In this document: positions 19,536 to 55,929 of the stretch, one piece after another
Layout: every line of letters starts with the position of its first letter
Position numbering within the stretch: the stretch's first letter is position 1
Assembly (NCBI GenBank): GCA_023920165.1
Contig: CP089277.1
Location: 186,001-250,000, forward strand
Direction: 5' to 3'
DNA length: 64,000 nt
Source of the DNA: Curvularia clavata
Taxonomy: Eukaryota
Program-made: the position numbers and the translations under genes
Notes under the pieces: generated by a model
Seen by the model: the letters and a program-made list of their open reading frames with translations, nothing else
Told to the model about the DNA's origin: nothing
Databases searched by the model: none

Positions 19536-21098
19536 CTATGTGGATCCGATGGCCGCGGCGCAGGTTATAGTTTGGGAATCGTTGCCACAAGTGCGAATAA
19601 TCTCGCCTTTACTCAGGAAGCTGTGAGGACCTAGGCGAGTGGAGCTTTCGTATCAGCCACTGCGGGAGAGGAGTGGATGAATGTCGACCTTCGAGTCCCT
19701 GGCCCTATAGCTGGCGCCTTGAATAGTACTAATACCACAACTGCAGCGAACAATACTACACCTGCTCGCATGGAATCCAGATTACGTCTTAATATCAGGG
19801 CTGATTGCAGGACAACCACAGTCCAGTCCGGCGATGGTTGTTACACAGTCGCAAGTCGGTCCGGAATTAGCCAGGTCGATCTCCAAAAGGTCAACCGCCA
19901 GAATCTCTGCAATACGCTTATAAAAGATGAAAAGGTCTGCTGTAGCACGGGAACTCTGCCAAGCACTTTGCCTGCTGGTAATTCGGATGGCACCTGTAAA
20001 ACCATAGAAGTTTGTTAGCGGCGATAGCTGCGGTTCCCTTGCTTCAAAGTGCGGCATCAGCTCAGCAGACTTTATGAAGGTAAACACCAAAACTGACCTC
20101 TGCTCAAAATTAATTGAAGGTCAAAAAGTCTGCTGCTCGAATCGTAAATACCCAAATATAAAACCAAAGAAGGATGCAAACGGCAATTGCGCCGTGTATA
20201 TGACGAAGAAAGACGACTATTGCTCTAAGATCACAGTCTCCCGTGACATAACGGTGGCCGAGCTTGAGACTTTTAACAAGAAAACATGGGGTTGGAACGG
20301 GTGCGACCGTCTCTTCCCAGACTTCAAAATGTATGTCAGTGAGGGCAGCCCTCCCATGCCTGCCAACGTTCCGGTACTTATACATCCCTCCATTCCATTA
20401 TCATAACGAGATGAGAGCACCATGACTGACAAACCCGCTTTTCTAGAACGCCATGTGTGGAACAATGGTAAGAACTCTTTCCCATTTCCTGAAGTTAGAG
20501 CACAAAGATTAACGAAACAAGATGAATGGCACAACCCAACCGCCCTCTGGAACAGACTTGGCTACCCTCAATCCTTGCCCACTGAGCGATTGCTATAACA
20601 TTTGGGGCCAGTGTGGCATGACCGATGATTTTTGGGTCATCTCCAAGTCCGAGTCGGGTGCTCCCGGAACTTCTGCTCCTGGCAAAAACGGCTGTAAGTA
20701 CCCCCCATCTTTGGCGGAGCATCTATGCCTCCGAAGTTCGCGACGTCGTTGCGTGGATATTCTCTACAGATGTTCTTCTGCTCGTCGCTATATCACGTTT
20801 CAATAGCTAATTGGGGCATAGGCATCAGCAACTATGGCAGAGACATCATCAAGGGTTCAGCTCCAGCAAGCAAGATAAAGCTGGCATGTTATGAGAGCTG
20901 GAATTTCAACCCCGTGAGCCTTCTTATGTGAACGTCAAATTCAGCACACACTGACTGAAGTGATTTACAGCTTGTTTGACAATGCACGTCGACCAAATCG
21001 ATACGTCCACCTATACCCATATACATTTCGCGTTTGCGAATGTCACCCGAGGTGACTACCGGGTTGAGATCACTGATCCCAAGGTTCTGGAACAATTC
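19536..21098 (+). pseudogene. Remnant of subgroup-C (killer-toxin alpha/beta-like) GH18 chitinase: 3 LysM + CBM18 + truncated GH18
   Basis: LysM modules (VQSGDGC, VSGDSCGSLASKC, TWGWNGC), CBM18 (NPCPL..C.NIWGQCG), GH18 start (YTHIHFAFANVT). Stop at 19632-19634, frameshift near 20010-20018, no 5' end, and it ends before the DxDxE motif. Confidence 0.88.
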
Positions 21099-34763: not shown

Positions 34764-36349
34764 CTAATGGTTCAGCTTGACGTAATTTCCTATGACAAAG
34801 TCAGATTCAACTGCTCATCATATTTTGTAACATAGTATGCACTCACCTGGAAATTGTCCTTGCTTCCCCCGCACCTTGCCAATCCACCATTCGTTTTCAT
34901 TTTGTGTACGGGACACAATCTCGATGACGTCACCAGTCAAGAAACTCAGGTCGCCTTCTGCTTGGGCTTCGTAGTCGTACAAGGCTGTGACGGTCTCAGC
35001 TGCGGGGGCTCCGCTGAGACGCGAAGGCTTCGGTTTTGGAGGTGGAGGTGCGGCACCCTTGGCCTTGGCCGCAGAGCCCCACGACCCTGTTGATAATGTC
35101 GGTGACTTGACATCGCCGACGGCCGCTGAAGGCCCAGGTGAGTATGGTGGCGGCGGTGCTTCCGTCTCTTCGGATATCGAACTTCGACCGGCTTTGGCTT
35201 CGGCTGCTTTCAATGCATATTTGGACTGGCCAGGCCTTGCCCCCATCACACGAGCACCGCCAGTAGTCTTGAACTTGACAATGGATATCTTTTCTGCTTC
35301 CTCTTGAATATCGCCACGCTTCTTCAGGTAGGCTGCCTCGATGTCCAGAGTGAGGTCAAAGTATCCGATATCCAGCCGTTGCATGCGCTCGTGTAATGTG
35401 TAGAACACATTCAACTGCATGTAGTAAAAGGATTGGAACAGAGGCTTGATGAATTCTCTTTCTAGTGCGAAGAGCTTAGGCAGCTCATCCTTGAGCAGGT
35501 CGTTGAAGTAGTTGTAGTCCTGTGTAGCCTGCTCGACATCGGCTTCGGCGCGGTACATGGCCTTTTCATCTTTTAGTGTCTTGTCCTTCTTCTCTTCGAG
35601 CTTCTTGTATGTGGCGCGGTGCCTGTCGTAATCGAGTTGCTTGTGATCGCGCTTAGCGGCAATCTTGCGGACGGCTTTGATGATGATCAGGAGCTCATCT
35701 GCCGGACGAATGACGCGGGTCTCAATCATTTCAAGCTCGGGCTTGAGGGTTTCTTGCAACTCCTGGACCACAGACTGATACTGTTCGCAAGCTTCTATAC
35801 CGGCTGCGTTGCCTTCGTCATGAAACGAGTCGGGATCGGACATTCGACCGGAAATGGGTTTGTAGATTTCGGCGATTGCCTTGGAGAACTCGATCTGATG
35901 TGTGAGCATGCCTGAAAAGGGTGGTTAGGCGACTGGTGGGCGGGATCATGTAGAGTAAACGCACCATTAATGGCATCGAAGTACCTGTGACATGTGAGCA
36001 AAGCGGTGTCAGAGGAGGCATTGGTACGGGCGCATACTTCTTGGACTCTTCATGGAGCTTCTTTGTCTCCTTCTCCAGCTCCTGAAAGCGTCGTTCGGCA
36101 TCGATGTAGATTGGGTCCTTGGTGATCTCACCCTGGAAAGGCCTCCTGTTAGTGGTGCCCCGCTATGGTGAAGAGGAGGGGTAGAGGGAATTAGAGCATG
36201 CCCAGCGGCCCGAGAGGACGTACAAGGTTGAACTTCTGCTTGAAGGTTTGTGGCGCCTGTGCGATTGGGTTAGCAAGAGATAATGCCCAAGAAGCGCAAG
36301 GAGGCTATCGTACCCGAGTGACGCTCTTGGTAAGACCCTTCCAACTCAT
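34764..36349 (-). CDS. RVS167: BAR-SH3 amphiphysin
   Basis: [16 protein letters not shown] helix, [14 protein letters not shown]3 [26 protein letters not shown]; multiple introns. Confidence 0.93.
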
Positions 36350-36854
36350 GATGGAGGTATTATGCTCAGAGGGCGCAAGACGGATGTGCAGGAAAGGTGA
36401 AGTCTAGACACACGATATGGAGATGGAATGTACGTTGGAGTGAGCCGGCAGGTAGGACCAAGGATCGCGGGCGCCTGCGTGGCTGCTAAAGTCCCAATGA
36501 CGTTTTGTGGCTATGCAGCGAGCGCGCAGCCTTGCTCTGCTCGGAACGCCCGGAACGCCGAGGAATATCCAGCCCAGGTGACCTTGCGTTTGCTTGTCGG
36601 GTATCCACTTTTGGGCTGGCAATTGATGGATGTGTGTCAAGGCAGCGAACGCATCGAAGCCCCTGAAGTCCCAATTTTCTTTTCCCCGTCCACGCAAAGG
36701 CCGAACGGCTGCAGGTCGTGGACGAGTTCTGGTGCGAGTCGGGATGCGCACGGATCTGTTAGCGCCTCGGTCCGCCTCGGCTGCTTAGTCATGAGAAAAT
36801 GCCCAAGCTAAGAGGCGACCTGCCTTTCCATCTCTTCTCCATTGCACCTCCATT

Positions 36855-38628
36855 ATGCCCAACATTGCACCTACCATCGCGAGGCAGGCCTTGCGCATTG
36901 CTTCTCGTCGCTACCCATCGTCGGCCTTCGTACGCGCCCCGGGAGCGGCCGCTCGTCGCCACTATGTCAGCGAGAGCAAAGCTTCGCAGGCGACGGTCAA
37001 TGTCGACACTGCGATCAAGCAGGAGCAGAGGGCCTTTCTAGAGAAGACGGGTGAACGGCCAAGTGATGCGACAATGCCAACAACAGGCATGGGCGCGGAT
37101 GCCATGATGAGCCCTAGTGCTGGTAAGCTTGCAATATTCGCCTCTCGACCCCGCCCCACCTCATGAGACTGACTGGAGCAGGTATACTCAAGCAAGCTAC
37201 GGTCATGGACCAAGGCTCGCGGCCCATCTACTTGGACATGCAAGCTACTACGCCCATGGACCCGAGAGTTGTAGACAAGATGATGCCCTTCATGACCGGC
37301 ATGTACGGCAACCCCCATTCGCGAACCCACGCCTATGGGTGGGAAACGGACAAAGCCGTAGAGGAAGCCCGCGCACACATTGCCAACTTGATTGGTGCCG
37401 ACCCCAAAGAAATCATCTTCACTAGCGGTGCGACTGAAAGTAACAATATGAGTATCAAAGGTGTAGCACGATTCTTTGGAAAGGGAGGCAAGAAGAAGCA
37501 CATCATCACAGCGCAGACCGAGCACAAGTGTGTGCTCGACAGCTGTAGACATTTGCAAGACGAGGGTTTCTCGGTGACTTACCTGCCAGTAGGAAGCAAT
37601 GGTCTCATCGACATGGCCCAGCTCGAAGCCGCCATGCGTCCAGACACTGCCATTGTCAGCATCATGACGGTCAACAACGAGATTGGCGTGGTACAACCAG
37701 TCGAAGAGATTGGACGGCTGTGCCGATCGAAGAAGGTGTTTTTCCACACCGACGCGGCTCAAGCCGTTGGTAAAATTCCCATCGATGTCAACAAGATGAA
37801 TGTCGACTTGATGTCAATATCTGGGCACAAGATCTACGGACCAAAGGGCATTGGAGCATGCTATGTTCGACGACGGCCCAGGGTCAGACTCGAACCCATC
37901 ATCAGTGGTGGTGGCCAGGAGCGCGGTCTGCGAAGTGGCACACTAGCACCTCCCCTTGCTATTGGCATGGGTGAAGCCGCGCGGATTTGCAAAGAGGAGA
38001 TGGAGGTATGTATTTCTTTTTCTTCTATTACACTTTTGAACCACGATGATTATTTGCTTTAATACATGCATGGCTTTCAGAGTGTTAGGCGGCTTCGGCC
38101 GTCGACGCGCCATGTTGACAAATGTGCAGGGGTTATGAGAATTTATTGTTAGCAATTTGGTTGTAACAGTTAATGGGCTCGAACAACGCGCTGACGATAA
38201 TCCAGTATGATACCAAGCGCATCACAGCGCTATCAAATCGTCTCCTCGATGGCTTGCTATCACTTGAGCACACCACACTGAACGGCGACCGCGAGCGACA
38301 TTATCCCGGCTGCGTAAACGTTTCGTTCGCGTATGTTGAAGGAGAATCACTGCTCATGGCGCTGAAGGACATTGCTCTTTCTTCTGGCAGCGCTTGCACT
38401 TCAGCGTCGCTCGAACCCAGCTACGTTCTACGAGCTCTCGGCAGCAGTGATGAGAGCGCGCACAGCAGTATCCGCTTTGGTATTGGCCGCTTCACAACAG
38501 ACTCTGAGATTGATTATGTCTTGAACGCGGTCAAGGAGAGAGTGACGTTCCTGCGAGAGCTTAGTCCATTGTGGGAGCTGGTGCAGGAGGGTGTCGATCT
38601 GAACACAATCGAATGGAGTCAGCACTAA
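36855..38628 (+). CDS. NFS1: Mitochondrial cysteine desulfurase
   Basis: Arg-rich presequence; [38 protein letters not shown] (PLP Lys), SSGSACTS (catalytic Cys), EWSQH end; two introns. Confidence 0.97.
38038..38143 (+). ncRNA. Intronic box C/D snoRNA, double guide (18S rRNA and U6 snRNA)
   Basis: C box ACGATGA 38043-49; guide ACATGCATGGCTT 38064-76; D' CAGA 38078-81; cUUCGg hairpin; C' ATGTTGA 38112-18; guide TGTGCAGGGGTT 38123-34; D ATGA 38135-38. Lies in the ~200-nt NFS1 intron 2. Confidence 0.82.
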
Positions 38629-39007
38629 GTCACACACAATCATTTTGATACCCTGGAAGGGATTTGTATAGTATGGAGGCGTATGTTCTTTCAGCACTGG
38701 TTATGCCTACGCTCGCTGAAGCGGTCACGAGACACATGACTACTTTAATGTACTATATGCGATAGCTCTACAAATGAAATGTATCGAGCCTACCTGACCA
38801 TGACCCAAGACGTGCATTAGTGCGTAACGTAATCTCACAAGTGCTACTGCCACCATGAAATGTGATGCAACCATTCAAAACTCGTATCAAGCATAGAGAT
38901 TGCCGAAGGATTGGCTAGTCAGGGACCCGGTGGCTCGTTGCCAAGGTGTTGAGGGGCAGTGTTTCGATGATGTCGTAGAGCTTCCCCAGGTCCCCACCAA
39001 CCTCCCA

Positions 39008-40977
39008 ATGGCCAGCGACAAAGTATTGAATTGGCTATACAGCGTCCTTGTCAATGCAAGTCAAGTCGGTCGCGTCAAACCAGCGAGTGCTAACAGATGG
39101 TCAGGAATACTTGGACGTGAACCGCACATATCACGACGCGGCTGAGACGCTGGCCAACTATCCGTCGCTCACGGTCCGAACCGAGCCCTACAGTCTGTTG
39201 ACCCCCCAGCATGGCCAGTATAATAGCTGACGAGAGCAGCTTACGAGAATGGAGCCTCGGCGCTCTTACTGCTTCTCACAGGCACGTTGCCTGTCACCTT
39301 TCGCGGCGCGACGTACGGCTTTCCGGTAGCAATATGGGTGCCTCATGCCTACCCAAGAGAACCGCCCATCGTATACGTCACGCCTTCGCAGGACATGGTA
39401 TTGCGCCCTGGACAGCATGTTAGTACAGATGGCAAAGTGTATCATCCGTATCTGGCGCAATGGGCGCAGTATTGGGATGTGAGTATTGCATGCGCTTCAC
39501 AAATCCACATAGCGGCTGACCTTTGCGTAGAAATCTACCTTGTTCGACTTCTTAGCAGTCTTGCGCGGCGTCTTTGCAAAAGAGCCACCAGTACGATCGC
39601 GACAACAGCAGCCGCAGCAGAACGCGCCCGCGCAACAGACTCCACCACCAGTACCTCCACCTCCGGCCGAATGGCGACGTACCGCGCACGCGACACCCAT
39701 CTCCTCACCTGCTCCAGCTTTGTCGAATCAAGCCCCACCGCCTCCCCCCAAACCGCCTAAACCTCATGAACAGCAGTCAGCTACGCCCCAGACACCACAC
39801 GATAGATATTCGAAACCTCCACCTCTACCGCCGCATCCACCACAACATGCTCAGTCTCACCAGCAGCAACAACCTCAGAGGAACAGATACGATGGGCCGT
39901 CAAACTGGCAGCAGCAGCAGCAGCCACCATTACCGCCACCACCACCGCGGGAACAGCAACCTATGCCGTCAGCTGAATCGTTCCGCTTTGGCATGAATCC
40001 AGTTACAGCAGGGCCACGACCGCAACATCCACAGGTACAAGCGTACAACCACCCTCAGCAATCGTTCGGAATGGACAGTCCAGTAAGCCCAATGACGCCC
40101 AACGGCCAAATGACAGCATCCCACTTTCCAGGCTCGGGGCCTTCTCAACCATCTCCGCTCCAGCAGACAAATCAGCAACAAGGACCTCCAGCACCTCGGC
40201 AGCAGCATTCTGGACAACCGGCAGCGCCACAGCATTACCAGCAGTATCCTCCAGGCTATGCTCCGTTTCCGAACCAGCAATACCCGCAGCAACAACCACA
40301 GCAGGCCCCGCCAGCTCCAAAGCCCCCGGTTGACCTACTTGATGACTCGCTGGAGGTTACATTACCATCACAGTCAGGTAACCAGGTTCCCCTGCCGGTG
40401 CCACCAGTCCCACCAAATCCTGAAAAAGATGCGCTTCTTCGAGCTCTTAGCCAGACTCTGGTCTCACAGATTAACCAAACAGTGTCCTCCAACATGGCTG
40501 CCATAGCACCACTTCGTGCACAGCAAGCGGCCCTTCAAAATGCACATGCCCGGTTGCAGGCTGAGTTGGGCGAACTGCAACAACTTGAAGCAGCCCTTGC
40601 TTCTAACGAACAAGTATTAAAAGGAGCAATGGTCGAGGCAGATCGAGTCATGGAAGATGCGCGCAGAAGGAAGGCCCCAGACGTGGACGATGTGTTGGTG
40701 GCGCCGACTGTGGTCGGAGGGCAGCTATATACTCTGGCTGCTGAAGAGAAAGGCATTGCAGACGCGCTGTTTGTTCTGGGACGGGCCCTTGACAGGGGCC
40801 GGATTACCCCAGATGTGTTCGTCAAGGTACGTACCATCTCCCTGAGACTCGTTGATTCGAACAGCTACTTACAGCCTACAGCAAACTCGCAGTCTTGCTC
40901 GTGAGCAGTTTTTGAAAAAGGCACTCATCAAAAAGATCGCCAGAGGCATGGCACTAGACGAATACCAACTACAATAA
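39008..40977 (+). CDS. VPS23: ESCRT-I subunit Vps23/Stp22/TSG101
   Basis: UEV domain (LPVTFRG..FPVAIWVPHAYPREPP..VYHPYL), P/Q-rich linker, coiled coil, SB box (QLY.L.AEE.GI.D..FVK|QTRSLAREQF). First intron is GC-AG. Confidence 0.92.
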
Positions 40978-41590
40978 ACTTGGCTCAGGGTAGTTCCGAG
41001 GACTTGAGGGGTTTCCTGGCCTGCTGCAGCTCATCCGATACCAATGCGAAACTCGGCAGCGACAGTTTTCAGTTACGCCTGCGTATCGCACAATCGTGTC
41101 TTGAATGAATCGTGCCAATCAAGCCCTGAGTTGTATGAATGGGGCTATGTGTTTGCAGTACGTGATTATCGTATTGCTCAGTCATCGTCGTTGCGCAAGT
41201 CACTCGACGTGTCAATTTAGGACTCAATAACCAAGACCAAGAATTTTTAATCTGGATCGAGTAATTCAATCGTGTGGCAAGGGCAAAGCCGAATCAAGCT
41301 TATGATAGCGCCATGCTAAGAGCGATCCTGCATCGAATTTACCCGGGCTAACAATGACGCGGGCCACTTTGCTCTAAATTAAGCCTTGCCCAGTACGATT
41401 CAGGATCAGGCAACCAACCACGCCGTGATGGCAGAAGAAGTCTTGACTCTCTGCTGCCTGGCCTCCTCTTGCTTCTTCATGCTTCGCTTTTGACCGTCGC
41501 CATCGCGCATATTTTTGCGCTTCCGCTCGCTCGCGCCTACATCCACAACGACACTCGTTTTTTTATATACTTAATCACATTCTAATAATC

Positions 41591-42865
41591 ATGTCCGCTT
41601 CACAGCCCCAGGTCGCACCCCAAGCGTCTGGAGCGCCCACAGAGCCCTCGAATGCCCAAGCCGCTGCATCACAGACTCCCGCAATGCCGTCCGAATCATC
41701 TTCAGGACCGACCGCTACCAATGCGAACGCTGACCGAAGCGTGAATCCCACCCCAAATCAAGATGCGACGATCGCGGCGGGTACTCCCACCCCCGGTCAG
41801 AATACGACTCCTGCTCCAGCGACCCAGGCGACTACCCCCACCGACGAGCCCCTCTCTTACAACGACAAGCTCAATGCTAACGACCGTTACTGGAAGTTCA
41901 AGTTTGGCTTCTATGCCGTCCTCATCATAACGGGTCTGGTGGGCATCGGCTGTTTTGCATGGCTCATGAGCACACGCGGTGCGCTTTATGAAGGCTATGG
42001 CATGGATTCCTTCATCGGTCTATGGCCCGCCCTGATCACCTGGTCTTTTTCAATTGTCTGGTGCATCTGTTGTGTTGTCATCTTTCTCACGCGGAAACGT
42101 GCTGTTCATCCTGGTACACGCGTAGCCGTGGAGCTGCTCCTGTGGCTGGCTTTCCTTGTTACATCGCTGTTTGCACTTTTCGCCCTGCAGAGCCTGATGG
42201 ACTATGGCTTGTATGGTGGCCCTGACGGTTGGACATATAACTACTCCAACAATGGTGGGGACTATGTCCTTGCATCCAACAACACCTGGGTTTGGGAAAC
42301 AGACAACAGCTATATTTCAAGCCCTCGCGATTGCACCGGCAGTCATGCACCATTCTACAACATGGACTTTAAAGACTGCGCTGAACAGGACGCCTTCGTC
42401 AACAGGGCCTGGGCCGAGAAGCCGCACCGCACAAGCGTTAACCTGACGGGAGTTGTATGCCAGTTTTTCGGTTTAGCTATCCACTTTGCCTTGTTCGTCT
42501 GGGCCTGTGTGGATACAAATCGGTACAATCGCAGCAAGATCAGCAATGATGCCGAGAAACTTGCTGCCGGAATCGTGGAGAAGATGATCCAAAACGGCGC
42601 TATTGTACCCCCGCCAGGACAGGCTCACTTGCAGCCGGGTATGGGCCAAAGAGTGTACTATCAGGTGCCTCCACAGGGGTATTCGATGCAGCCCGTGTAC
42701 ATGCAGCAAGGTCCAGGACAACCACAGCAATTCATGCACCCGCAACAGATGGGCCAGCAGCAGTATATGATGCCAATGCAGTATCCCATGGCGCAGCAAG
42801 GACCAAATGGCCCGGCTGTCGGTACTGCCGGGCCAAGCAATGAGAAGGCGGCACGGTATGCCTGA
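41591..42865 (+). CDS. Hypothetical 4-TM membrane protein (MARVEL-like topology) with disordered termini
   Basis: 424-aa ORF; four hydrophobic helices, VHPG..V.VELLLWL, LFVWACVDT; Q/M/P-rich tail. Confidence 0.8.
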   Translation: MSASQPQVAPQASGAPTEPSNAQAAASQTPAMPSESSSGPTATNANADRSVNPTPNQDATIAAGTPTPGQNTTPAPATQATTPTDEPLSYNDKLNANDRYWKFKFGFYAVLIITGLVGIGCFAWLMSTRGALYEGYGMDSFIGLWPALITWSFSIVWCICCVVIFLTRKRAVHPGTRVAVELLLWLAFLVTSLFALFALQSLMDYGLYGGPDGWTYNYSNNGGDYVLASNNTWVWETDNSYISSPRDCTGSHAPFYNMDFKDCAEQDAFVNRAWAEKPHRTSVNLTGVVCQFFGLAIHFALFVWACVDTNRYNRSKISNDAEKLAAGIVEKMIQNGAIVPPPGQAHLQPGMGQRVYYQVPPQGYSMQPVYMQQGPGQPQQFMHPQQMGQQQYMMPMQYPMAQQGPNGPAVGTAGPSNEKAARYA

Positions 42866-43132
42866 GCAGGAGAGAAGGAACTTGTATCACATGTGAATGA
42901 GTCAAGGACACGCACGATGAGCATTTGCGCAGACGAGATACCCCTTTGACATGCAGTTGACTAGTTTTATTCTTTTCTTCTTCTTTGCGAGCTTAGCTCT
43001 GAGTTTTTTTTTTCTGAAAGACGATATTATTTGATTTGAGGAGAAGGAACTTTGAGATTGGTTTGATTTTCAGCTTATACGAGAGACATTGAGAAGGAAT
43101 AAGAATATATGATAGTCCTTCTCCACAACTAT

Positions 43133-45598
43133 CTACAAAGTAGCAGCCTCAACGTTAAATATCCGCAATGAAGTATCGTCACTCGCTACAGCAATCTGCT
43201 GCTGCTGTCCACTGCCCTGTCTACCAGGTCGCCAGACAATCTGATTGATCGTCTTCGCAGGCAGTAGATGCGGCTGCACCATCGACACATGTACTTGGTC
43301 CAGAGCCTCCGATCCCACGCTTCCAACACCCACTTCACCACTCTCCGTTCCAAACGCAAATACCACTTTACCTTCTGCATCTGGGTTCGTAGCATTGCAC
43401 GCCACAGCCGTAACAGGGGCGTTTGCCGAAACAGTAGCTTTAAGCTGTACATCCGACTCCGTAACTTGCCAGATCTTGATACTCTTATCTCTTCCTGCCG
43501 TTAGGAAAGTAGGCTGGTTGACGAGAGGCGCCCATGCCGCGTCGAGAATCATACGTGAATGACCCTTTGGATTCGAGTGTTTCTGCGTATACAGCGCTGC
43601 TGAGTCGCTGCTGCGTTCCCACAGGACCCATTGCCGGTCACGGCCTACACTCAGCAGGTACTTGTCGTCTGGGGAGAACTGCAGCGAAGTGACGGTGAGG
43701 GAGTGGGCTTTGAGCGGGGGCTTGACTTCGAGCCATTCTTTGGTGTCGTAGAGACGGATTACCGCGTGGTCGATAGAACTAGCGCGGCAGGCAGTGGCGA
43801 CGAGGCTGGCGTCGTGGCTTACGGCCAGAGCGGAGATTTCGTAGCCGTGGCCGTAGAGTTTCTCTGTCTCGGGCCAGAGTAGGTGGCGCGCGAGGTGGTC
43901 CTCGAAGGGTGGGTGGTTGAAGTCTAGTGTGGATTTGCGGACTACCGAGGCCGGGTCTATGGCTTCACGCTCGTCTTCGTCGCCGTTTTCCACGGGCTCT
44001 TCGTCGCCGACGGCTTGGATGGCTTTGTTGGAGAGACCGAGAACGGGGATGTTGGCTGCGTCTGGTAGCGCGGCTGAGGTGGACGGCTGTATGTCGCACA
44101 GTTTGTGAAGCATCTCCGCGACGCCTTTTGGTTCGTCGAAAACACGAAGCAGCTTCTCGTCTGCACCGGAGATGAATTGCGTATTGGAGACTGTATCGAT
44201 ACAGTTGAGATCGTATCCGTGGATTTGCGGTCTCGAGAATTCGTGCCATGAGGGCGCCACGCCATCGCGTTTCCATTGAGAGTACAGCCGCGTTGTCTGA
44301 TCGGTTCCCGTTGTAAGAAGATACGATCCGTCTCTTGACCATGACACGCCCTTGACTTCACGTACATGGCCAGTGACGGCGACCTGCTGCTTCCACATGT
44401 CTTCCGCAGCGGAGAATGTCCACTTTCTCCAGCTGCCGGTACGACCTAGAGACACGACTGTATTGCCATCTGGCGACCACAGTCCAATCCAGAAACCTCC
44501 TGCGCTACCAGTGGCACTGGTAGAACCCTTTTGGGCACTGATTTCTCCTAGTCGAGTGATGCATACCCATACACCGGAAGAAGGATCAGACTCCCAGATC
44601 GACAGCGAATTGTCTTCAGAAGTAGATAGCAGTTGTAGCTTTCCGTCGCGGTGACGCCATGATGCTTGGTAGATCCAATCTTCGTGGCCTAAGAGCAGAG
44701 CCTCGAATGTGATCGAGTATTTGGATTCAGTTGAGCTGATCCAATGCGCTTTGTTTGACAGTGATTTTCCCATGCCACCCAAAGCAGGGTCATTAAGCGC
44801 TGTGCTCGCAGCGGGGAGCTCATTTCCTCTGTGAAGTCGCCAGAGACGGATGTATTTGTCTTGACTTGCTGAAGCCAGCAAAAGATCACTGTCAGGCTCC
44901 GATGTCTCTTTGGTGAATTCAAGCGCACGGATCCATCCTTCGTGTCCAGTCAGCGTAGCTGAGAGCTGGAATTGACTGTCGTGGGAAACAAAGATCTGGA
45001 TGGTGCTGCGGGTTCCAGCGACTGCCAACACTATTGACTTTGAGTCCAGTGTTGCAAGGGCTAGATTGAGAGGGAAGTACTTGGGTGAAAGCGTGATAGT
45101 TTGAACAAGTTCGGCGTCGATTGAAGCAAAATCCGAATCATGGATCAGCTTCCATATCTTGACGGTGCCGTCGGAAGATCCGGTAACAAACGTTTCCGAC
45201 CCAGACAGCGTCGCTATCCGTGTGACGGGCTGCTGATGTTCAGATATGGTTTTTACACACTCGAAGCGTTCGCCTCTCTTGGCTCGCCATATGCGAACAG
45301 AGTTGTCAGCTGATCCACTAAGCAAGACTGATATATCCGGCGATGAAGTCGGGAAGAACTTGACCGCATTCACAGCCTTGGCATGTCCACTCAATATTGC
45401 ATGTACACCGCGAAGTCCCTCATGCTGCCTTGGTGAGTGAAAAGTACGTCATTGGCGTGCTGGACTCACTTGAGGATCCCACAGTGCAATATTATTGTCG
45501 GCGCCAAAAGCCAACAGCTGCAACCCGGCATCATCCCAATCGGCGGCCGCAGGGTTACGATTGCCGCCTATGGCTATGAACTCAGGAGATACATTCAT
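43133..45598 (-). CDS. ELP2: Elongator complex subunit 2 (WD40)
   Basis: GGNRNPAAADW N-terminus, GHEGWI, SASQDKYIRLW, RPQIHGYD, SGADEKLLRVF, LWPETEKLYGHGYE; one intron. Confidence 0.95.
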
Positions 45599-45785
45599 TG
45601 TTCGTAGTGGTGGTGCATGCGCGGGTACTGCATCTAGTCATCGCCCGTAAGGATTTCTTTGGCGCTAGTCTCGCTTAGCCGCCGTCGATCCATCATGACT
45701 GGCAAGCGCAACCGGCGTGCCCGGTCTCTACAACAAAACTGCGTAGCCATCTTCCAATCTGCTTTGGCGAGAATTCACACTAGAC

Positions 45786-46210
45786 ATGTCGAATGATGAA
45801 ACAATTCCAGTAAAGATCGAGTTCAGGTATATCTCAACAGTATCTGGGCATAGCACAATTCACTGACTCCACTACAGCGGGGGACTCGAGATTCTCTTTG
45901 CCAACCAAAAGAAGTATGATCTCTCTCTACCGGCTAAGGATGAGTCGGGGAGCCCAGCAAACATAGCGTTTCTTGTAAGATACCTTTGTGACAATGTCAT
46001 GAAGGATCCGCGTAAGGAGTTATTCGTGTTGGACGACACCGTGTATGTTCAACTATCACAGCCGCTTCCGCACTGCTGACATGGTGAACCAGACGACCTG
46101 GCATCTTAGTCCTCATCAACGAGGCAGACTGGGAGCTAGAAGGGGAGGATAAATACGAGGTACAAAAGGGCGACCACATCATGTTTGTCTCCACGCTTCA
46201 TGGAGGATGA
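45786..46210 (+). CDS. URM1: Ubiquitin-related modifier 1 (missing from ORF track)
   Basis: Three exons give [10 protein letters not shown]...[18 protein letters not shown]...FVSTLHGG*, with the diagnostic C-terminal GG. Confidence 0.95.
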
Positions 46211-46993
46211 AGGATATGCATAGGAAGAGCAGCACCACTTACCATATTTGCCCTGTGGGAGAATCTCTCTATTTTGGTTCAAAAGCTCGTCTGTTCGAGA
46301 AATCAGTCAAGAATAAGGCTTCTGCAGCATCCAGCTTACGTAAGATGTAAGATGTAGTTAAAAATTAATCAGGTGCTCAGATGTTGAAGTGTCAGGGGAT
46401 ATCCACTGATGTAGCAACACATGACCAAATTGTTAGTATCTATCAGTACTTTCTGCCAATGTAGATAGGTATCTTCTTCACTCGATCAACTACTAGCGGC
46501 TACCTCGACTGTATGATCACGGGTCGCCCATCGATCTTTTGCGCTCGAACTCGTGTTGTGCCACAATATTTATTGCTTACAAGTCACTGCAGTGATAATA
46601 CATGTCGTCCTGGTATCACAAGATGAAGAACTACTTTTCATTCACTTCCAAAGAGACTTATGTAACATCAACCACTATATAAGTTAATGAACATCAGGAT
46701 TAATCATGTATCGATGCAGCGACAGAGGACACTTCTGCAATCGGGACGAAAAGAAGGAGTTCGTACTCATCTGACTTCAAGGATACAGATGAAGACGACG
46801 CAACCGGGAGTGAGACTGAAGCAAAGAGCGAGCAAGAGTCAGCCGCTACCAACCATCAAGAATAAGCTAAGATCTTCAACAATCCCAATGGGGTAGGTAG
46901 AAGGCACTTGATCCACAGAAGCCTGCTATCAGGGTTGTATTGCTCCACCTCATCTGAACCTTAAAAGGAAATTTCTAAAGCTCAGTGAAAAAT

Positions 46994-47450
46994 CTATTTG
47001 CATATTCCAAAGTTCTTCTGGCTATGGAAAGGTTAGTGCAAGTGACAGCAATCAAACAGAGGGAGCACATACCAGCCGGTCTTGCAATGGCCGTCTGTTG
47101 TGCCGCAGAAACCACTGCTTGAGCAGCATTGCCCGTCGAACGGGCCATTGGCACATGTAAAACCGCCCTTTGAAGCGCCACAGTCGCCGTTTAGCGTTGG
47201 AACATTGACTGTTAAACACGCGCTGGAGAAGGACTTTTGACTATCGCCACATTAGCATGAACCATATAGCACGTTAGGATAAACAAAGTGCGTACCAGCC
47301 TTGGGCGCAGTAATTGACCGTACTGCCGCAGTAGCCATCTTTGTTATAGCAGTTCCCGAAAGTACTGCCCTGGCACGTCATGCATTTACTTCCACCACAA
47401 GTGCTGCTAGTAGAAACGTCTGTTGTTAGTGGTGTACTCGAAGTCTCTGT
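46994..47450 (-). pseudogene. 5'-truncated fragment with two chitin-binding type-1 (CBM18/hevein) domains
   Basis: CGG..TCQGSTFGNC(frameshift)GYCGSTVNYCAQGC|QKSF and CGASKGGFTCANGPFDGQCCSSSGFCGTTDGHCKTGC|QKNFGICK*. Two introns; abuts an AT-rich break at ~47460-47530. Confidence 0.8.
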
Positions 47451-47712
47451 TGGACAGAGATATACTTTCTAGTTTTATTTTGAGTGGGTAGAAATATTTA
47501 TTAAACTATCATTTACATTAAGTAAACTATTGCATGCACTGGCCACCTACAGCAGCGCACTGTGTCAAGAGCCATGCCAAGTCAGCTAGTATACTACGTA
47601 CGTAAGCGATGGCAGCGGCAGTCGTTGATATACAACCGTGCCGCACACTATTCCTCCTACATTCTTTTTCGCTCAACAAAACCCCATTTTCTCATCTTCG
47701 AATCTCTCCACC

Positions 47713-50906: not shown

Positions 50907-51868
50907 ACATGTATTGAGAAACTGAACGTTGTTCTCCAGGTCAACTCGCAGGCGAAAAGTCCGGCGTTGAGGGACTGGGCGAGGAAGAGGTCGACTCATG
51001 ACAAGTCAGCTACCGTGATCTTCGATACAGGGCCAAGGATCAAATCGCGGAGCTCGATAGAGTACAGGCATATCTTGAGTCACAAGCAACGAACAAGCTT
51101 GGTCGTATGAAGCATCAGGTTCGTACATGCAGTAAGCCTCTGACAAGACTAGACTCACTATTTTTCAGAATAGAGAAGGTAGCAGTATTGTGGCATCCTT
51201 ACATACGTCGAGGCATTGCCGGGCTGCAAGTGGAAGGTAGATGTCAACAAGTGCAAGGAGATTTTCAGAGACATTATTGACCATTGCGATACCAATGGCG
51301 AGAATCGAAACCAGGGTGGAAGATGGGAGAATAATTGTCTAAAGTGGAGACTTGATCCAAACGCCGATCTTTGAGAATTCGTTGTGCATAGAACTATAAC
51401 AAGAAGTAGCCGCAGTCTCGGACGATATTTGTAGATTGAAAGTTTTTACAGTTTTATGGGCTGAGAATTAACTATGAACATGGCGGATAGTCATGGGTGT
51501 CATCACCGTGCTCGTGGTAGTCGCCTCAATGTTGAGGAATATACTTAGGGTAGTACTTTTGTTGCACTCTATCTGGGGTGGGCAGGGACTGTGGCGAGTA
51601 AGGTGAGACAATGACAAGTTTAGTGCGTTAATGCAGAAACAATGTGGCCGGAAGAGTGCTTGGATGATGCCAGAAGCTTGTCGTGGCATGCAAAAATAGG
51701 CTGCCCCTTTCTGTGTCGTAATTCCGCCGTCTCACTCCGGGAGTGAGCCAATGCCAAGCCTTTGCCACGTGCCAACGCGCAGCCGTGTTATCACCCAACG
51801 CGTGTAACGGTTCCTTGTTTTCGTCGCCATCAGCACACAACCACGACTCTTCGCCCACCAAACGTACA

Positions 51869-53584
51869 ATGTCGTCTGACGATGAAGATCTCAAGCTTGC
51901 CATGGCAATGTCACTCCAGGACACTAGCGAGCCTATCGACCTCACTTCCAGTACGGATGACGACGAAGACGAGGATCTTAAGCGTGCCATTGCCCTGTCC
52001 TTACAAGAAGGTAGCAATAATGACGAAGCACAGCCACCCAATAAAAGCACTGTGGCTCAGACTTCTCGTGAAACAGCCTCAAGCTCCATGGGCATGGATC
52101 GGAAGGCAATGGAACAAGAGCGCCTAGCAAGATTAGGCAAACGTAAGCGCGAGCCATCTCCGGAAAGACCTTCCAAGCAGGCCTCAGGAGCGGCTAAGGC
52201 TTCTGGATCATCTCCAGACCCAGCGCTGCAATACCCCACGGGAGTCATCAAGCGGACATTTGCTACAAAATACCCGAGGTCAGACGACATCACTATCGAT
52301 GAAGTTTTGGAAGCGCCAAAAGTTCGTGTAGCAGTCATTAGCTCGTTCATGTGGGAAGCGGAATGGCTGTTCAAGAAACTGAATCCCGCCAAAGTGAAAC
52401 AGATATGGATCATGAATGCAAAAGGCAAAGACGTTCAGCAGAGGTGGCAGAGGGAAATGGAAGACATGGGCGTTCCGAACCTCGAAATCCATTTTCCGCC
52501 TATGGACGGAATGATTCAAAGTATGCACAGCAAGTTCATGCTGCTCTCCGGCCGCGACAAGCTACGTATCGTCATTCCAACTGCCAATATGACGCAGATC
52601 GACTGGGGAGAGGTAGCGAATGACTGGCAACCTGGTGTTATGGAGAATTCCGTCTTCTTAATTGATCTCCCACGCAGACACGATGGATTGGCGGGCAAGA
52701 AGGAAAGCTTGACACGCTTCGGTCAAGAGCTGATGTATTTCTTGGAGATGCAGAAGGTTCCACAGAAGGTGGTGGAAGGCGTCTTGAAATTTGACTTCTC
52801 ACGAACTAGTAACTTGGCTTTCGTCCATTCCATGTAAGATGGCCGGCATGATAATCCCCAGATTCAACTAACCTATTAAAGTGGCGGCTCACATAAGTCC
52901 GAGTCTGTGCCCCCTACAGGACTTCCAGGCCTTGCAAAAGCTATTCAAGATTTACATCTCGACAACGTAGAGCGGGTAGAGCTCGATTATGCCGCTTCCT
53001 CGCTTGGTGCTATCAATGACCATCTGTTGTCGCGCATGTACCTTGCAGCATGTGGCAAGCCTTTTACACCAGACACATCCACGGTACCCAACGTTCGTGA
53101 TTGCATCCGCATATACTTTCCTACGAACGATACTGTGGAGAAAAGTCATGGAGGCCCTGACTGTGGTGGAATCATCTCCCTGACACAGCAATACTACAAC
53201 GCGGCCACGTTTCCGAGAGAGTGCCTCCGTAACTATGAGTCGTTGCGACGAGGGATGCTATCGCACAACAAACTCATCTTCGTACGCGGGCGAAAGAAGG
53301 ACGGAAAGCTATTTGCATGGGTTTACGTGGGGTCGGCCAACATATCGGAGTCGGCATGGGGAGGGCAGAAAGTGCTTAAGAACGGCAGCATGGGTGCTTT
53401 GAACATCAGGAACTGGGAGTGTGGTGTTGTGGTACCTGTGCCAGACGACCGACTCACGGGTTTGGGGCTCAACAGTAATGAGGTAGCGCCGATGAGGGTA
53501 TTTGAAGGCACAGTCGAGGTACCTTTCCGATATCCAGGAGAGAAATATGAAGGCAAACAACCGTGGTTCTTTCGACCAGGGTGA
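51869..53584 (+). CDS. Tyrosyl-DNA phosphodiesterase (TDP1 family) with N-terminal UIMs
   Basis: Two HxK motifs (MHSKFML..PTANM; SHNK..YVGSANISESAWG), RNWECGV; one intron at ~52834-52881. Confidence 0.9.
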
Positions 53585-53993: not shown

Positions 53994-55929
53994 ATGTCGG
54001 ACGCATCTAACGCTCTAAAGCGACCCCATGTCTCGACAGACGCGACCGCTGCCTATACCATTGAAATGTTGAAAAAGCAACAACCTCTCACAGCACCCAT
54101 CCACGGCCTGTTCACTTCGCCAGCAAGATCGCATCCCAATGCTGCCCACGCCAAAGAGCTCCCTTTGCACCTCATCCAGCTGATCCTCACACACGTACGT
54201 CATTGGAATCGCGTGGGAGCCCGCCAGCTGACCATGAATGAAGCTTGACCATGTTGGCGACCTTGCACGCATTACACGCACATCGCGTCTCTTCTACTAC
54301 ATGGCGCTGCCGCGCCTGTACGAGCACGTCACGCTCCGCGCCTACTCAGAGATACGCTTCGTAGACGGCAAGCCCGAGGGATACGGCAGCGGGAGTCCCT
54401 TTGCCATGGGACTCAATACGCTCGTGTCGCGCAACTTCAGCGATTATATACGCAAGTTCTCCGTAGTGGGCGATTGGCGAGAACACGATGTCGACGACTT
54501 TAAGCAAGGCCGCGTGCCGGACAATTCCATGATACTCCAGGTTGCCATGCGCGCCGCACTCGACCGCATGAAGAATCTCGAAAGTTTTGCGTACGTTGTA
54601 GCCTGTCAAATGCCTCCCAAAATCATTGCTGATATTTCCAGGTGGGAGCTCAACATGCCACCACTACAAACAGTTTACCAGGGCCTCGGGGCCAGAACCA
54701 CGCTGGCCTCGCTAACGATTCGATGCCAGACACGACGCATACCACGTCCAACCTCCATCTTACCTCCATTACCCAATCTGCAGACACTAGTCGTATACGA
54801 CATTGACCCTCTTTGCTATCCCGACGACATTTCGCTGCTTCTCCTCGGCTCCAAGAAGCTTGAAAATCTCAAGCTGCACTGGAGCCCTCGTATGCGGGCC
54901 GAGGGCGAAGAGTCGATCAATCTGCATTCCATCTTCGGCCGCTGCATAGCTGCGAAACACTCGATACCACTTAAACGCTTCGCTATATACAACTTATACA
55001 CTCGCAACACAATGGACGGCGTCCATAATGCTCTCAGCCAGGACGCCAAGGCCGAAATGACAGCAATCAACTCGGGAAACCTTTCTGATCCCACGACAGT
55101 CTTTATTGACAGCTCGTGGAAGGTACAAGACACCGAACTTGCTACGCTCAATCTGAAGATGATTCGCACCGACAATGCGGAAAAGGAACAAGCAGTTGCA
55201 TTAGGAAAATACAAAGGCTTGGAACGCCTGTACATCATTGGAAGCAGGCGAGGTGGTCCCTCATACTCAAAACCGAACAGTTCTGCTACAACTCCCGCAA
55301 CGCCATGCAACATGACGCCCAGTATGAGTAACGGTACTGGGAGTGCTAACGGCACCCCGAACACCATTTCTGAAAGCCGTTGCCGGAGTATTGCAAGCGA
55401 ATATCTCGCTGCTATTCAGACTAACCACCGCACAATCCGTCATCTGCTCCTTTCAGATCGTTGGGTCTTGTCTGACGATGCCCTGTTCAGACTCTGCCAG
55501 TCGTGTCCGAATCTAGAGCAGCTTGGCTTCGCTAGCTCGGTTCCGCCACTCGAGTCGTTGCGCCAAGTTTTCGCTCTCGTGCCCAAACTTTGGGCTGTAC
55601 GTTTTTTGGTCAACCCAAGCCATGATGGTACCGACAGATCTGAACTCACAGATCCAGACATAAACGGCTTTGCACTTGCCACAGAGTTTTGGCATCCGGA
55701 GTACAAAAATTTGAAATATGTTGGATATGGTGAAGACCTGGTTTTCAAGCTCGGCGGAGTATACTTTCCACCAAAGGGCAAAATGCCGGGTGCCGGAGTT
55801 GAAAGTAATAGTTTGAGCGCTAGAATGTCTGGCCCGAAACGGACTTTTAAAATAGTAAGCAGAGAGAGCGTCAAGGATATCGAGATCTGGGGCTTGGATA
55901 CCGGCGAGTTTGATCCCGCATTTCCCTGA
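53994..55929 (+). CDS. F-box-like/LRR-type protein
   Basis: ELPLHLIQLILTH|LDHVGDLARITRTSRLFYYMALPRLY F-box-like segment, LPNL/LERL/CPNLEQL repeats; two introns. Confidence 0.8.

Follow-up and report, generated by a model that had tools for sequence, protein, structure and literature searches.

Genes at the locus

We analyzed a 64,000-nucleotide stretch of the Curvularia clavata genome (assembly GCA_023920165.1, contig CP089277.1, forward-strand positions 186,001 to 250,000), hereafter called the window, in which the genes NFS1, ELP2 and URM1 lie within 9.4 kb. Our main subject is the head-to-head pair formed by ELP2 and URM1. The products of all three genes contribute to 5-methoxycarbonylmethyl-2-thiouridine at the wobble position of tRNA (mcm5s2U34). 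In the pathway set out in PMC5699542, sulfur mobilised by Nfs1 reaches Urm1, which Uba4 thiocarboxylates, and is passed to U34 by Ncs2/Ncs6; the cm5 side chain is the work of Elongator, which has Elp2 as a WD40 subunit. The same source describes the two pathways as cooperating in mcm5s2U34, and in some species s2 needs mcm5. An original prediction, made from the sequence of the window, had read NFS1, ELP2 and URM1 as a possible functional, co-regulated cluster for this modification.

All five genes that had been predicted in the interval, namely NFS1, VPS23, a gene for a protein of 424 amino acids (aa), ELP2 and URM1, were borne out, coordinates included, by Pfam and PDB matches and by RNA contigs (Table 1). 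The ELP2 translation was 100% identical to C. clavata yc1106_05339, and the two-exon model reproduced the annotated length of 806 aa. It was similar over nearly its full length to solved Elp2 proteins, which have two WD40 propellers. The match to yeast Elp2 (PDB 5m2n/4xfv) reached 2e-170 over residues 13-766, and those to mouse and human Elp2 reached 5e-110 and 4e-104, compared with only 6e-31 for the best non-Elp2 WD40 protein. URM1 is annotated in C. clavata as yc1106_05340, the tag next to ELP2. Pfam Urm1 (PF09138) matched its exon 2 (8e-10; profile positions 5-58) and exon 3 (2e-17; positions 59-96 of 96). The model was free of internal stops and ended in HGG, with the stop codon at 46208-46210; the same C-terminus was present in most of the related-locus URM1 proteins that we examined. 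Both large exons of NFS1 matched Aminotran_5 (2e-79). The closest PDB entry was human mitochondrial NFS1 (5usr, 1e-130), and E. coli IscS was matched at 1e-109. NFS1 therefore has the class-V aminotransferase fold of group I of the Nfs1/IscS proteins, with mitochondrial NFS1 as its nearest relatives. An Arg-rich N-terminus was seen by eye.

The GT..AG joints in the RNA contigs of four public runs matched the modelled introns. The ELP2 intron (45425-45469) was spliced in three runs, both introns of NFS1 and both introns of URM1 were also spliced, and the NFS1 contigs carried poly(A)-like loose ends at 38792. From the joints and the tails it follows that the contigs are RNA-derived and that transcription and splicing of all five genes agree with the models. 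These runs consist of contigs; parts that they leave uncovered carry no meaning, and depth, strand or expression ranking cannot be read from them. For VPS23, three introns were backed by RNA joints, and the first intron and the stop codon were modelled only. The protein of 424 aa, which the original prediction had called a membrane protein, matched no family in the Pfam scan. One RNA contig (run X15, record 17; 41646-44259) extended unbroken from this gene into the convergent ELP2, whose 3′ part it covered. It suggests that the two genes overlap at their 3′ ends, although a contig over two genes is no proof of a single transcript.

Table 1. Coordinates of the features discussed. Positions are those of the window, except where a related locus is named by its L number.
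Feature	Position	Strand	Details
ELP2, Elongator WD40 subunit	43133..45598	-	exons 45598-45470, 45424-43133; 806 aa
URM1, ubiquitin-related modifier/sulfur carrier	45786..46210	+	exons 45786-45826, 45878-46042, 46093-46210; 107 aa
ELP2-URM1 spacer, putative bidirectional promoter	45599..45785		187 bp from ATG to ATG, read from the sequence
10-mer CTCGCTTAGC	45670..45679	+	recurs in ELP2-URM1 spacers of Pleosporales-like and Leotiomycetes-like loci
NFS1, mitochondrial cysteine desulfurase	36855..38628	+	exons 36855-37122, 37182-38005, 38206-38628; 504 aa
Candidate intronic small RNA element	38046..38140	+	about 95 nt, within the 200-nt NFS1 intron 2 (38006-38205)
VPS23/TSG101-type ESCRT-I gene	about 39008..40977	+	Pfam UEV and Vps23_core; unrelated to the pathway
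Gene for the 424-aa protein	41591..42865	+	ATG and stop read; convergent with ELP2
ABC ATPase gene, example	L055:12859-14043	-	soluble, single-domain
ABC ATPase gene, example	L043:13267-14367	-	soluble, single-domain
ABC ATPase gene, example	L006:4827-5861	-	soluble, single-domain
MOD5	L076:13722-15317	+	same position in L002, L009, L023, L065, L066, L068, L069, L074, L078; also in L053 and L020
MOD5	L029:13515-15218	+	as above

Conservation of the URM1-ELP2 adjacency

To compare the locus with its relatives, we scanned metagenome contigs with an ELP2 profile. The profile was built from 16 diverse proteins, with Agyrium rufum placed first, so that the hits were not all from Pleosporales. At least 574 stretches fit the pattern and at least 475 encoded an ELP2 relative. 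The best 80 were taken together with as much as 10 kb of flank per side and fell into 63 groups at ≥95% nucleotide identity over ELP2. We regarded groups with ≥1.1 kb upstream of ELP2 as informative for the pair (n = 52), groups with ≥9.9 kb on both sides as the full-flank set (n = 26), and groups with ≥6.5 kb downstream as the set for NFS1 (n = 33). The flanks were searched by tblastn with the genes of the window, and URM1 was searched again permissively (E ≤ 10, word size 2). Open reading frames (ORFs) in the flanks were compared all-against-all and then by Pfam and tblastn to define background neighbors. The loci were labelled by their best hits to named ELP2 proteins, their best hits to named URM1 proteins and a quick maximum-likelihood ELP2 tree (99 rows, Pneumocystis root). 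Representatives at 50% identity were dropped for classification, as most crown Pezizomycotina ELP2 proteins were nearest to the query, and named references were used instead.

Among the 52 informative groups, URM1 was head-to-head with ELP2 in 41. It was displaced in two, to 1.7 kb in L029 and to 6.3 kb on the same strand in L045, and missing in nine. The permissive search of the loci lacking the pair revealed nothing credible. Two groups with short flanks (L003 and L016) still showed the pair; nine others were too short to judge, and nothing was seen in them. The head-to-head arrangement is thus conserved in most of the dereplicated loci and in several classes, and the ELP2 identity of pair-bearing loci to the window fell as low as about 50% (50-60%).

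The pair was found in many orders of Dothideomycetes and in Eurotiales, Lecanoromycetes, Leotiomycetes and Sordariomycetes-like loci. The Eurotiales loci had an ELP2 86% identical to that of Thermoascus and a URM1 84-91% identical to that of Penicillium freii (91% in L067). The Lecanoromycetes comprised a Pleopsidium-like locus (ELP2 83%) and an unplaced Lecanoromycetes-like clade of eight groups. The Leotiomycetes loci were related to Stipitochalara and Mollisia, with identities up to 86% to Stipitochalara. In the Sordariomycetes-like clade, which we call clade G, URM1 was nearest to Fusarium (75-77% to Fusarium URM1 in L032). Two informative Pezizomycetes-like groups (ELP2 about 70% identical to Pyronema) were without the pair. 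The best 80 loci included none from Saccharomycotina, Taphrinomycotina or Basidiomycota.

Consecutive locus tags of ELP2 and URM1 in named genomes agreed with this pattern. They were observed in C. clavata (05339/05340), Alternaria atra (5472/5473), A. panax (03647/03646), Neocucurbitaria sp. VM-36 (000520/000530) and Zasmidium cellare (28618/28617). All five of these genomes are Dothideomycetes, and the pair in the other classes is known from unnamed contigs alone. In the literature, M. oryzae URM1 is MGG_03978 and its neighbor MGG_03977 is COS1.

No other gene of the window stayed near ELP2 to the same extent. Among the 26 full-flank groups, URM1 was present in 21 (adjacent in 20), TDP1 in four, NFS1, VPS23, the 424-aa gene and RVS167 in one each, and five other window neighbors in none. 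URM1 was the only neighbor found in all five crown classes. These counts show that the URM1-ELP2 pair is ancient and has outlasted almost all other neighbors of ELP2.

TDP1 (tyrosyl-DNA phosphodiesterase) and the unnamed ORF54238, at 51722-53581 and 54238-55926 of the window, were located just beyond URM1 in many Dothideomycetes-like loci (L014, L027, L028, L031, L035, L036 and L058). The window has three or four additional genes between URM1 and these two. L053, a Pezizomycetes-like locus without URM1, also had TDP1, at a distance of 3-5 kb on the upstream side of ELP2.

The spacer between ELP2 and URM1

ELP2 and URM1 form a divergent pair in the usual sense (5′ ends separated by under 1 kb). 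Between the ELP2 start codon and URM1 exon 2 there were 279 bp in the window and 260 to 629 bp in all 43 pair-bearing loci. One ELP2 RNA contig stopped at 45622 and a URM1 contig started at 45751, which is a weak indication of where the transcripts begin. The loose letters beyond 45622 were the reverse complement of those before the NFS1 contig at 36843 and resembled a 5′ adapter of cDNA. If the contig ends lie near the true starts, the starts of the two transcripts would be no more than about 130 bp from each other, which can be taken only as a hint.

Between these two putative 5′ ends lies the sole exact copy of the 10-mer CTCGCTTAGC in the 64-kb window. Of 44 spacers, 16 contained its 9-mer core, CTCGCTTAG, when one mismatch was tolerated; 50 shuffles yielded 2.8 such spacers on average and never more than 6. 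The carriers were seven Dothideomycetes-like spacers (five Pleosporales-like, the window itself and the differently placed L037), eight of the nine Leotiomycetes-like loci and one locus in the Lecanoromycetes-like clade. Other k-mers enriched in the spacers were rejected as belonging to the coding sequence of URM1 exon 1 or to its splice donor. In L066, L067 and L002, which are Eurotiales-like and Pleopsidium-like, the spacer had, in place of CTCGCTTAG, the palindromic TTATCGATAAGC, built from a pair of GATA-like half sites placed back to back.

NFS1 stands outside the conserved unit

For the linkage of NFS1, a microsynteny check against neighboring genes had been proposed beforehand. We found that NFS1 decayed like a random neighbor, its single occurrence in the full-flank set being equal to those of VPS23 and the 424-aa gene. 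It was near ELP2 in one of the 33 groups with sufficient downstream sequence and in one shorter locus. The only loci in which NFS1, VPS23 and the 424-aa gene accompanied ELP2 were two Pleosporales-like ones, the Alternaria-like L031 and the Plenodomus-like L036, and in L036 NFS1 and the 424-aa gene were inverted relative to ELP2. NFS1 was not near ELP2 in the full-flank Pleosporales-like loci L035 and L058, nor in any other class. With one mismatch allowed, the CTCGCTTAG motif had no copy within 1 kb on the upstream side of the NFS1 start.

The original prediction also pointed to other pathway genes that might lie nearby. Our Pfam scan covered 71 sequences of the window, comprising 56 ORFs of ≥130 aa and 15 pieces in or beside the five genes. 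None of them belonged to the families of UBA4, NCS2/6, TRM9 or other ELP genes, and the 56 ORFs included no further gene for tRNA modification of any kind.

By a rough estimate made by hand, assuming about 20 pathway genes in about 10,000, the expected number of cases per genome is about 7e-4 for three pathway genes within five consecutive genes and about 0.02-0.04 for an adjacent pair of pathway genes. To count NFS1 among the pathway genes is generous, as it is a general enzyme of iron-sulfur (Fe-S) and sulfur metabolism.

A functional, co-regulated cluster of NFS1, ELP2 and URM1 for mcm5s2U34 would agree with the closeness of the three genes, with the presence of NFS1 near ELP2 in L031 and L036 as well, and with the flow of sulfur from Nfs1 to Urm1 (PMC5699542). 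However, it would not account for the absence of NFS1 from the surroundings of ELP2 in L035, L058 and every other class, for its inverted orientation in L036, or for the two unrelated genes that separate it from ELP2. The missing spacer motif and the service of NFS1 to all Fe-S and sulfur pathways also speak against it. We consider such a cluster highly improbable. NFS1, VPS23 and the 424-aa gene appear instead to be ordinary neighbors that were acquired within part of the Pleosporales and lie outside the conserved unit. Of the predicted cluster, the divergent ELP2-URM1 part, with its 187-bp spacer and its presence in at least five classes, was supported beyond what had been predicted, and the NFS1 linkage had to be given up. 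A tempting over-interpretation is thereby removed, since NFS1 falls outside any cluster.

A proposed shared promoter and a mechanical alternative

The unit that needs an explanation would then be the divergent URM1/ELP2 pair, read out from one very short spacer. This spacer may be a bidirectional promoter that keeps the Urm1 (s2) branch and the Elp2/Elongator (cm5/mcm5) branch expressed together. The pair would be preserved by selection against separation, together with the small target that the spacer offers to breakpoints. We infer the promoter coupling from the pathway roles of the two proteins (PMC5699542) and from the head-to-head anatomy. As a whole, a conserved pair with a shared promoter that couples the two branches of mcm5s2U34, and with NFS1 as a bystander, seems to us the probable explanation of the locus.

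Several observations weigh against this explanation. The first concerns another gene next to ELP2. A convergent gene for a single-domain ATP-binding cassette (ABC) ATPase, 100-800 bp past the ELP2 stop codon, was present in 18 of the 26 full-flank groups, and its persistence was similar to that of URM1. It was found beside ELP2 in Leotiomycetes-like, Lecanoromycetes-like, Eurotiales-like and Pezizomycetes-like loci and in clades E and F, and it was missing in Dothideomycetes-like and Sordariomycetes-like loci. Among the Pezizomycetes-like loci, it occurred even in those without URM1, and it is the oldest neighbor of ELP2. No specific relative of this ATPase was found in PDB, a Caf16-like identity would be no more than a guess, and we know of no link between it and tRNA modification. 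As it is equally persistent, long-lived adjacency at this locus does not require a shared function.

Secondly, about 20 kb of unrelated genes were conserved in the Eurotiales-like and Lecanoromycetes-like loci. There an ancestral block has been kept, in the order kinase, fam12, porin, PFK2, URM1 and ELP2 (divergent), the ABC gene (convergent with ELP2) and MOD5. Part of the pair signal in these loci is therefore plain synteny. Given these other long-lived neighbors of ELP2, persistence alone is no proof of selection for co-regulation. Thirdly, the CTCGCTTAG motif was confined to two groups and was present in both orientations, that of the Pleosporales-like loci being opposite to that of the Leotiomycetes-like loci. 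Fourthly, the ELP2 tree required at least five changes in the state of the pair, with several losses or displacements, and 11 of the 52 informative groups were without an adjacent pair. One gain after the split of the Pezizomycetes followed by four losses, or alternatively five losses, would fit this tree. All of these taxon labels are best hits and placements in a quick tree of unnamed metagenome contigs. Finally, in S. cerevisiae the two genes are presumably on different chromosomes.

Alternatively, the pair may have been kept by neutral or mechanical causes alone. Almost any breakpoint in a short spacer holding two core promoters would disable a gene, so that the adjacency would last with no gain from co-regulation, and the shared pathway would be a coincidence. 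The retention of the unrelated ABC ATPase gene, also in Pezizomycetes-like loci, is what this possibility would predict; so is a spacer that is short everywhere, and head-to-head pairs are generally better conserved (PMC1487180, PMC3024869). However, by our own rough estimate the chance is about 0.003 that the divergent partner of ELP2 would be one of about 15 genes for the same nucleotide. The recurrence of the same 9-mer CTCGCTTAG in the spacers of two classes also suggests a regulatory element over mere compactness. We hold purely mechanical conservation to be rather unlikely, though it deserves serious consideration beside the shared promoter.

The block raised a further question, as it contains another gene for tRNA anticodon-loop modification downstream of ELP2. 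This gene encodes a MOD5-type tRNA isopentenyltransferase (Pfam IPPT and zf-met; yeast Mod5 3eph, 8e-76) and is not in the window. In Eurotiales-like, Lecanoromycetes-like and clade E loci it followed ELP2 on the downstream side at a distance of 1.1-2 kb; there URM1, ELP2 and MOD5, three genes for tRNA anticodon-loop modification, lie within four genes. It was 3.1 kb from ELP2 in one Pezizomycetes-like locus and 4.4 kb in one Dothideomycetes-like locus. It might be supposed that an ancestral anticodon-loop neighborhood of URM1, ELP2 and MOD5 was selected and that Curvularia keeps a remnant of it, since MOD5 was near ELP2 in 11 of the 26 full-flank groups, from several classes. However, MOD5 travels with unrelated genes of the block, PFK2 and porin each being present in 11 of the 26 as well, and the ABC gene sits between MOD5 and ELP2. 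It was missing in the Leotiomycetes-like loci, clades F and G and nearly all Dothideomycetes-like loci. In addition, it acts on A37, another nucleotide in another pathway. Selection of such a neighborhood seems quite improbable. By comparison, URM1 was the only member of the block in clade G, and also in the Dothideomycetes-like loci except L020, where MOD5 lies at +4.4 kb.

The block may also be reflected in a published annotation. The Sarea resinae protein M1819_007394 (1151 aa), annotated as ELP2, also contains 6PF2K and His_Phos_1 domains. The gene model seems to have fused PFK2 with ELP2, which would agree with the block of PFK2, URM1 and ELP2 in the metagenome loci.

Returning to the shared promoter, one may go further and propose that filamentous ascomycetes have long maintained a bidirectional promoter devoted to fixing the ratio between the Urm1 thiolation branch and the Elongator branch, through a conserved cis-element (CTCGCTTAG, seen in two classes), and that the pair is the surviving core of an older anticodon-loop modification neighborhood including MOD5. 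This extended proposal is speculative, and we regard it as doubtful. If it were true, it would rank among the rare eukaryotic examples in which gene order is under selection for a housekeeping RNA-modification pathway, and would give a handle on the transcriptional control of wobble-uridine modification.

In fungi, loss of either branch of mcm5s2U34 leads to overlapping phenotypes in stress and virulence. To our knowledge, little is known about the transcriptional coordination of the two branches. If the deeply conserved shared promoter of URM1 and ELP2 is real, it would offer a simple mechanism for this coordination, testable in Aspergillus, Botrytis and Zymoseptoria. The pair would also be a functionally interpretable addition to the few pairs conserved in the scrambled ("mesosyntenic") genomes of Pezizomycotina.

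A conserved element in an NFS1 intron and other features of the window

The original prediction had mentioned an intronic snoRNA at the locus. Intron 2 of NFS1 is spliced and unusually long. It contains an element whose end is separated from the 3′ splice site by about 65 nt and which was nearly invariant between the window, L031:17247-17352 (-) and L036:9797-9905 (+), three Pleosporales lineages, while the remainder of the intron diverged. The consensus fold was a long hairpin, in which four pairs changed on one side yet stayed paired and none changed on both sides. The fold of the single sequence was not unusual (z = -1.0).

Box C/D RNAs have a C box (RUGAUGA) near the 5′ end and a D box (CUGA) near the 3′ end. 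The element had invariant AUGAUUA and AUGA near its ends, each one letter off the box C/D consensus, and these two deviations could pair with each other. Rfam gave no match in the window at the gathering threshold, nor in 36000-47000 at E ≤ 1. The element may plausibly correspond to a small intronic RNA.

No tRNA genes were found in the 64-kb window. Small Cys-rich ORFs with Chitin_bind_1 and LysM domains, which are of the secreted effector-like type known from plant-associated fungi, were observed beside URM1 (46900-47500, -) and elsewhere (20008-20403, +).

Comparison with known systems

In the literature on URM1-ELP2 synteny, gene clusters, bidirectional promoters and adjacency, searched outside subscription journals and supplements, we found no description of the pair. 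Familiar examples of head-to-head pairs are the fungal histone genes H2A-H2B and H3-H4, and GAL1-GAL10. The conserved pairs described in two surveys (PMC1487180, PMC3303733) are like URM1/ELP2 in their divergence, in a spacer far below 1 kb, in functionally linked partners and in long conservation. URM1 and ELP2 are neither paralogues nor subunits of one complex, but belong to two enzymatic branches that meet at one nucleotide.

Fungal metabolic clusters are known for secondary metabolism and for niaD-niiA-crnA, DAL and GAL, and niaD and niiA are divergent with a shared control region. URM1 and ELP2 resemble these clusters in that genes of one pathway are physically linked in a fungus. They differ in being two stably linked genes of housekeeping RNA modification; the other pathway genes, about 15 in number, were not found in the window, and NFS1 did not share the conservation of the pair.

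A more distant likeness is found in the prokaryotic and archaeal neighborhoods of the Urm1/SAMP/MoaD type, where a ubiquitin-like sulfur carrier is likewise encoded beside tRNA-modification machinery. Those cases are operons or fusions with thiolation genes or KEOPS, whereas URM1 and ELP2 are divergent eukaryotic genes, are transcribed separately and join the sulfur carrier to a scaffold subunit of Elongator.

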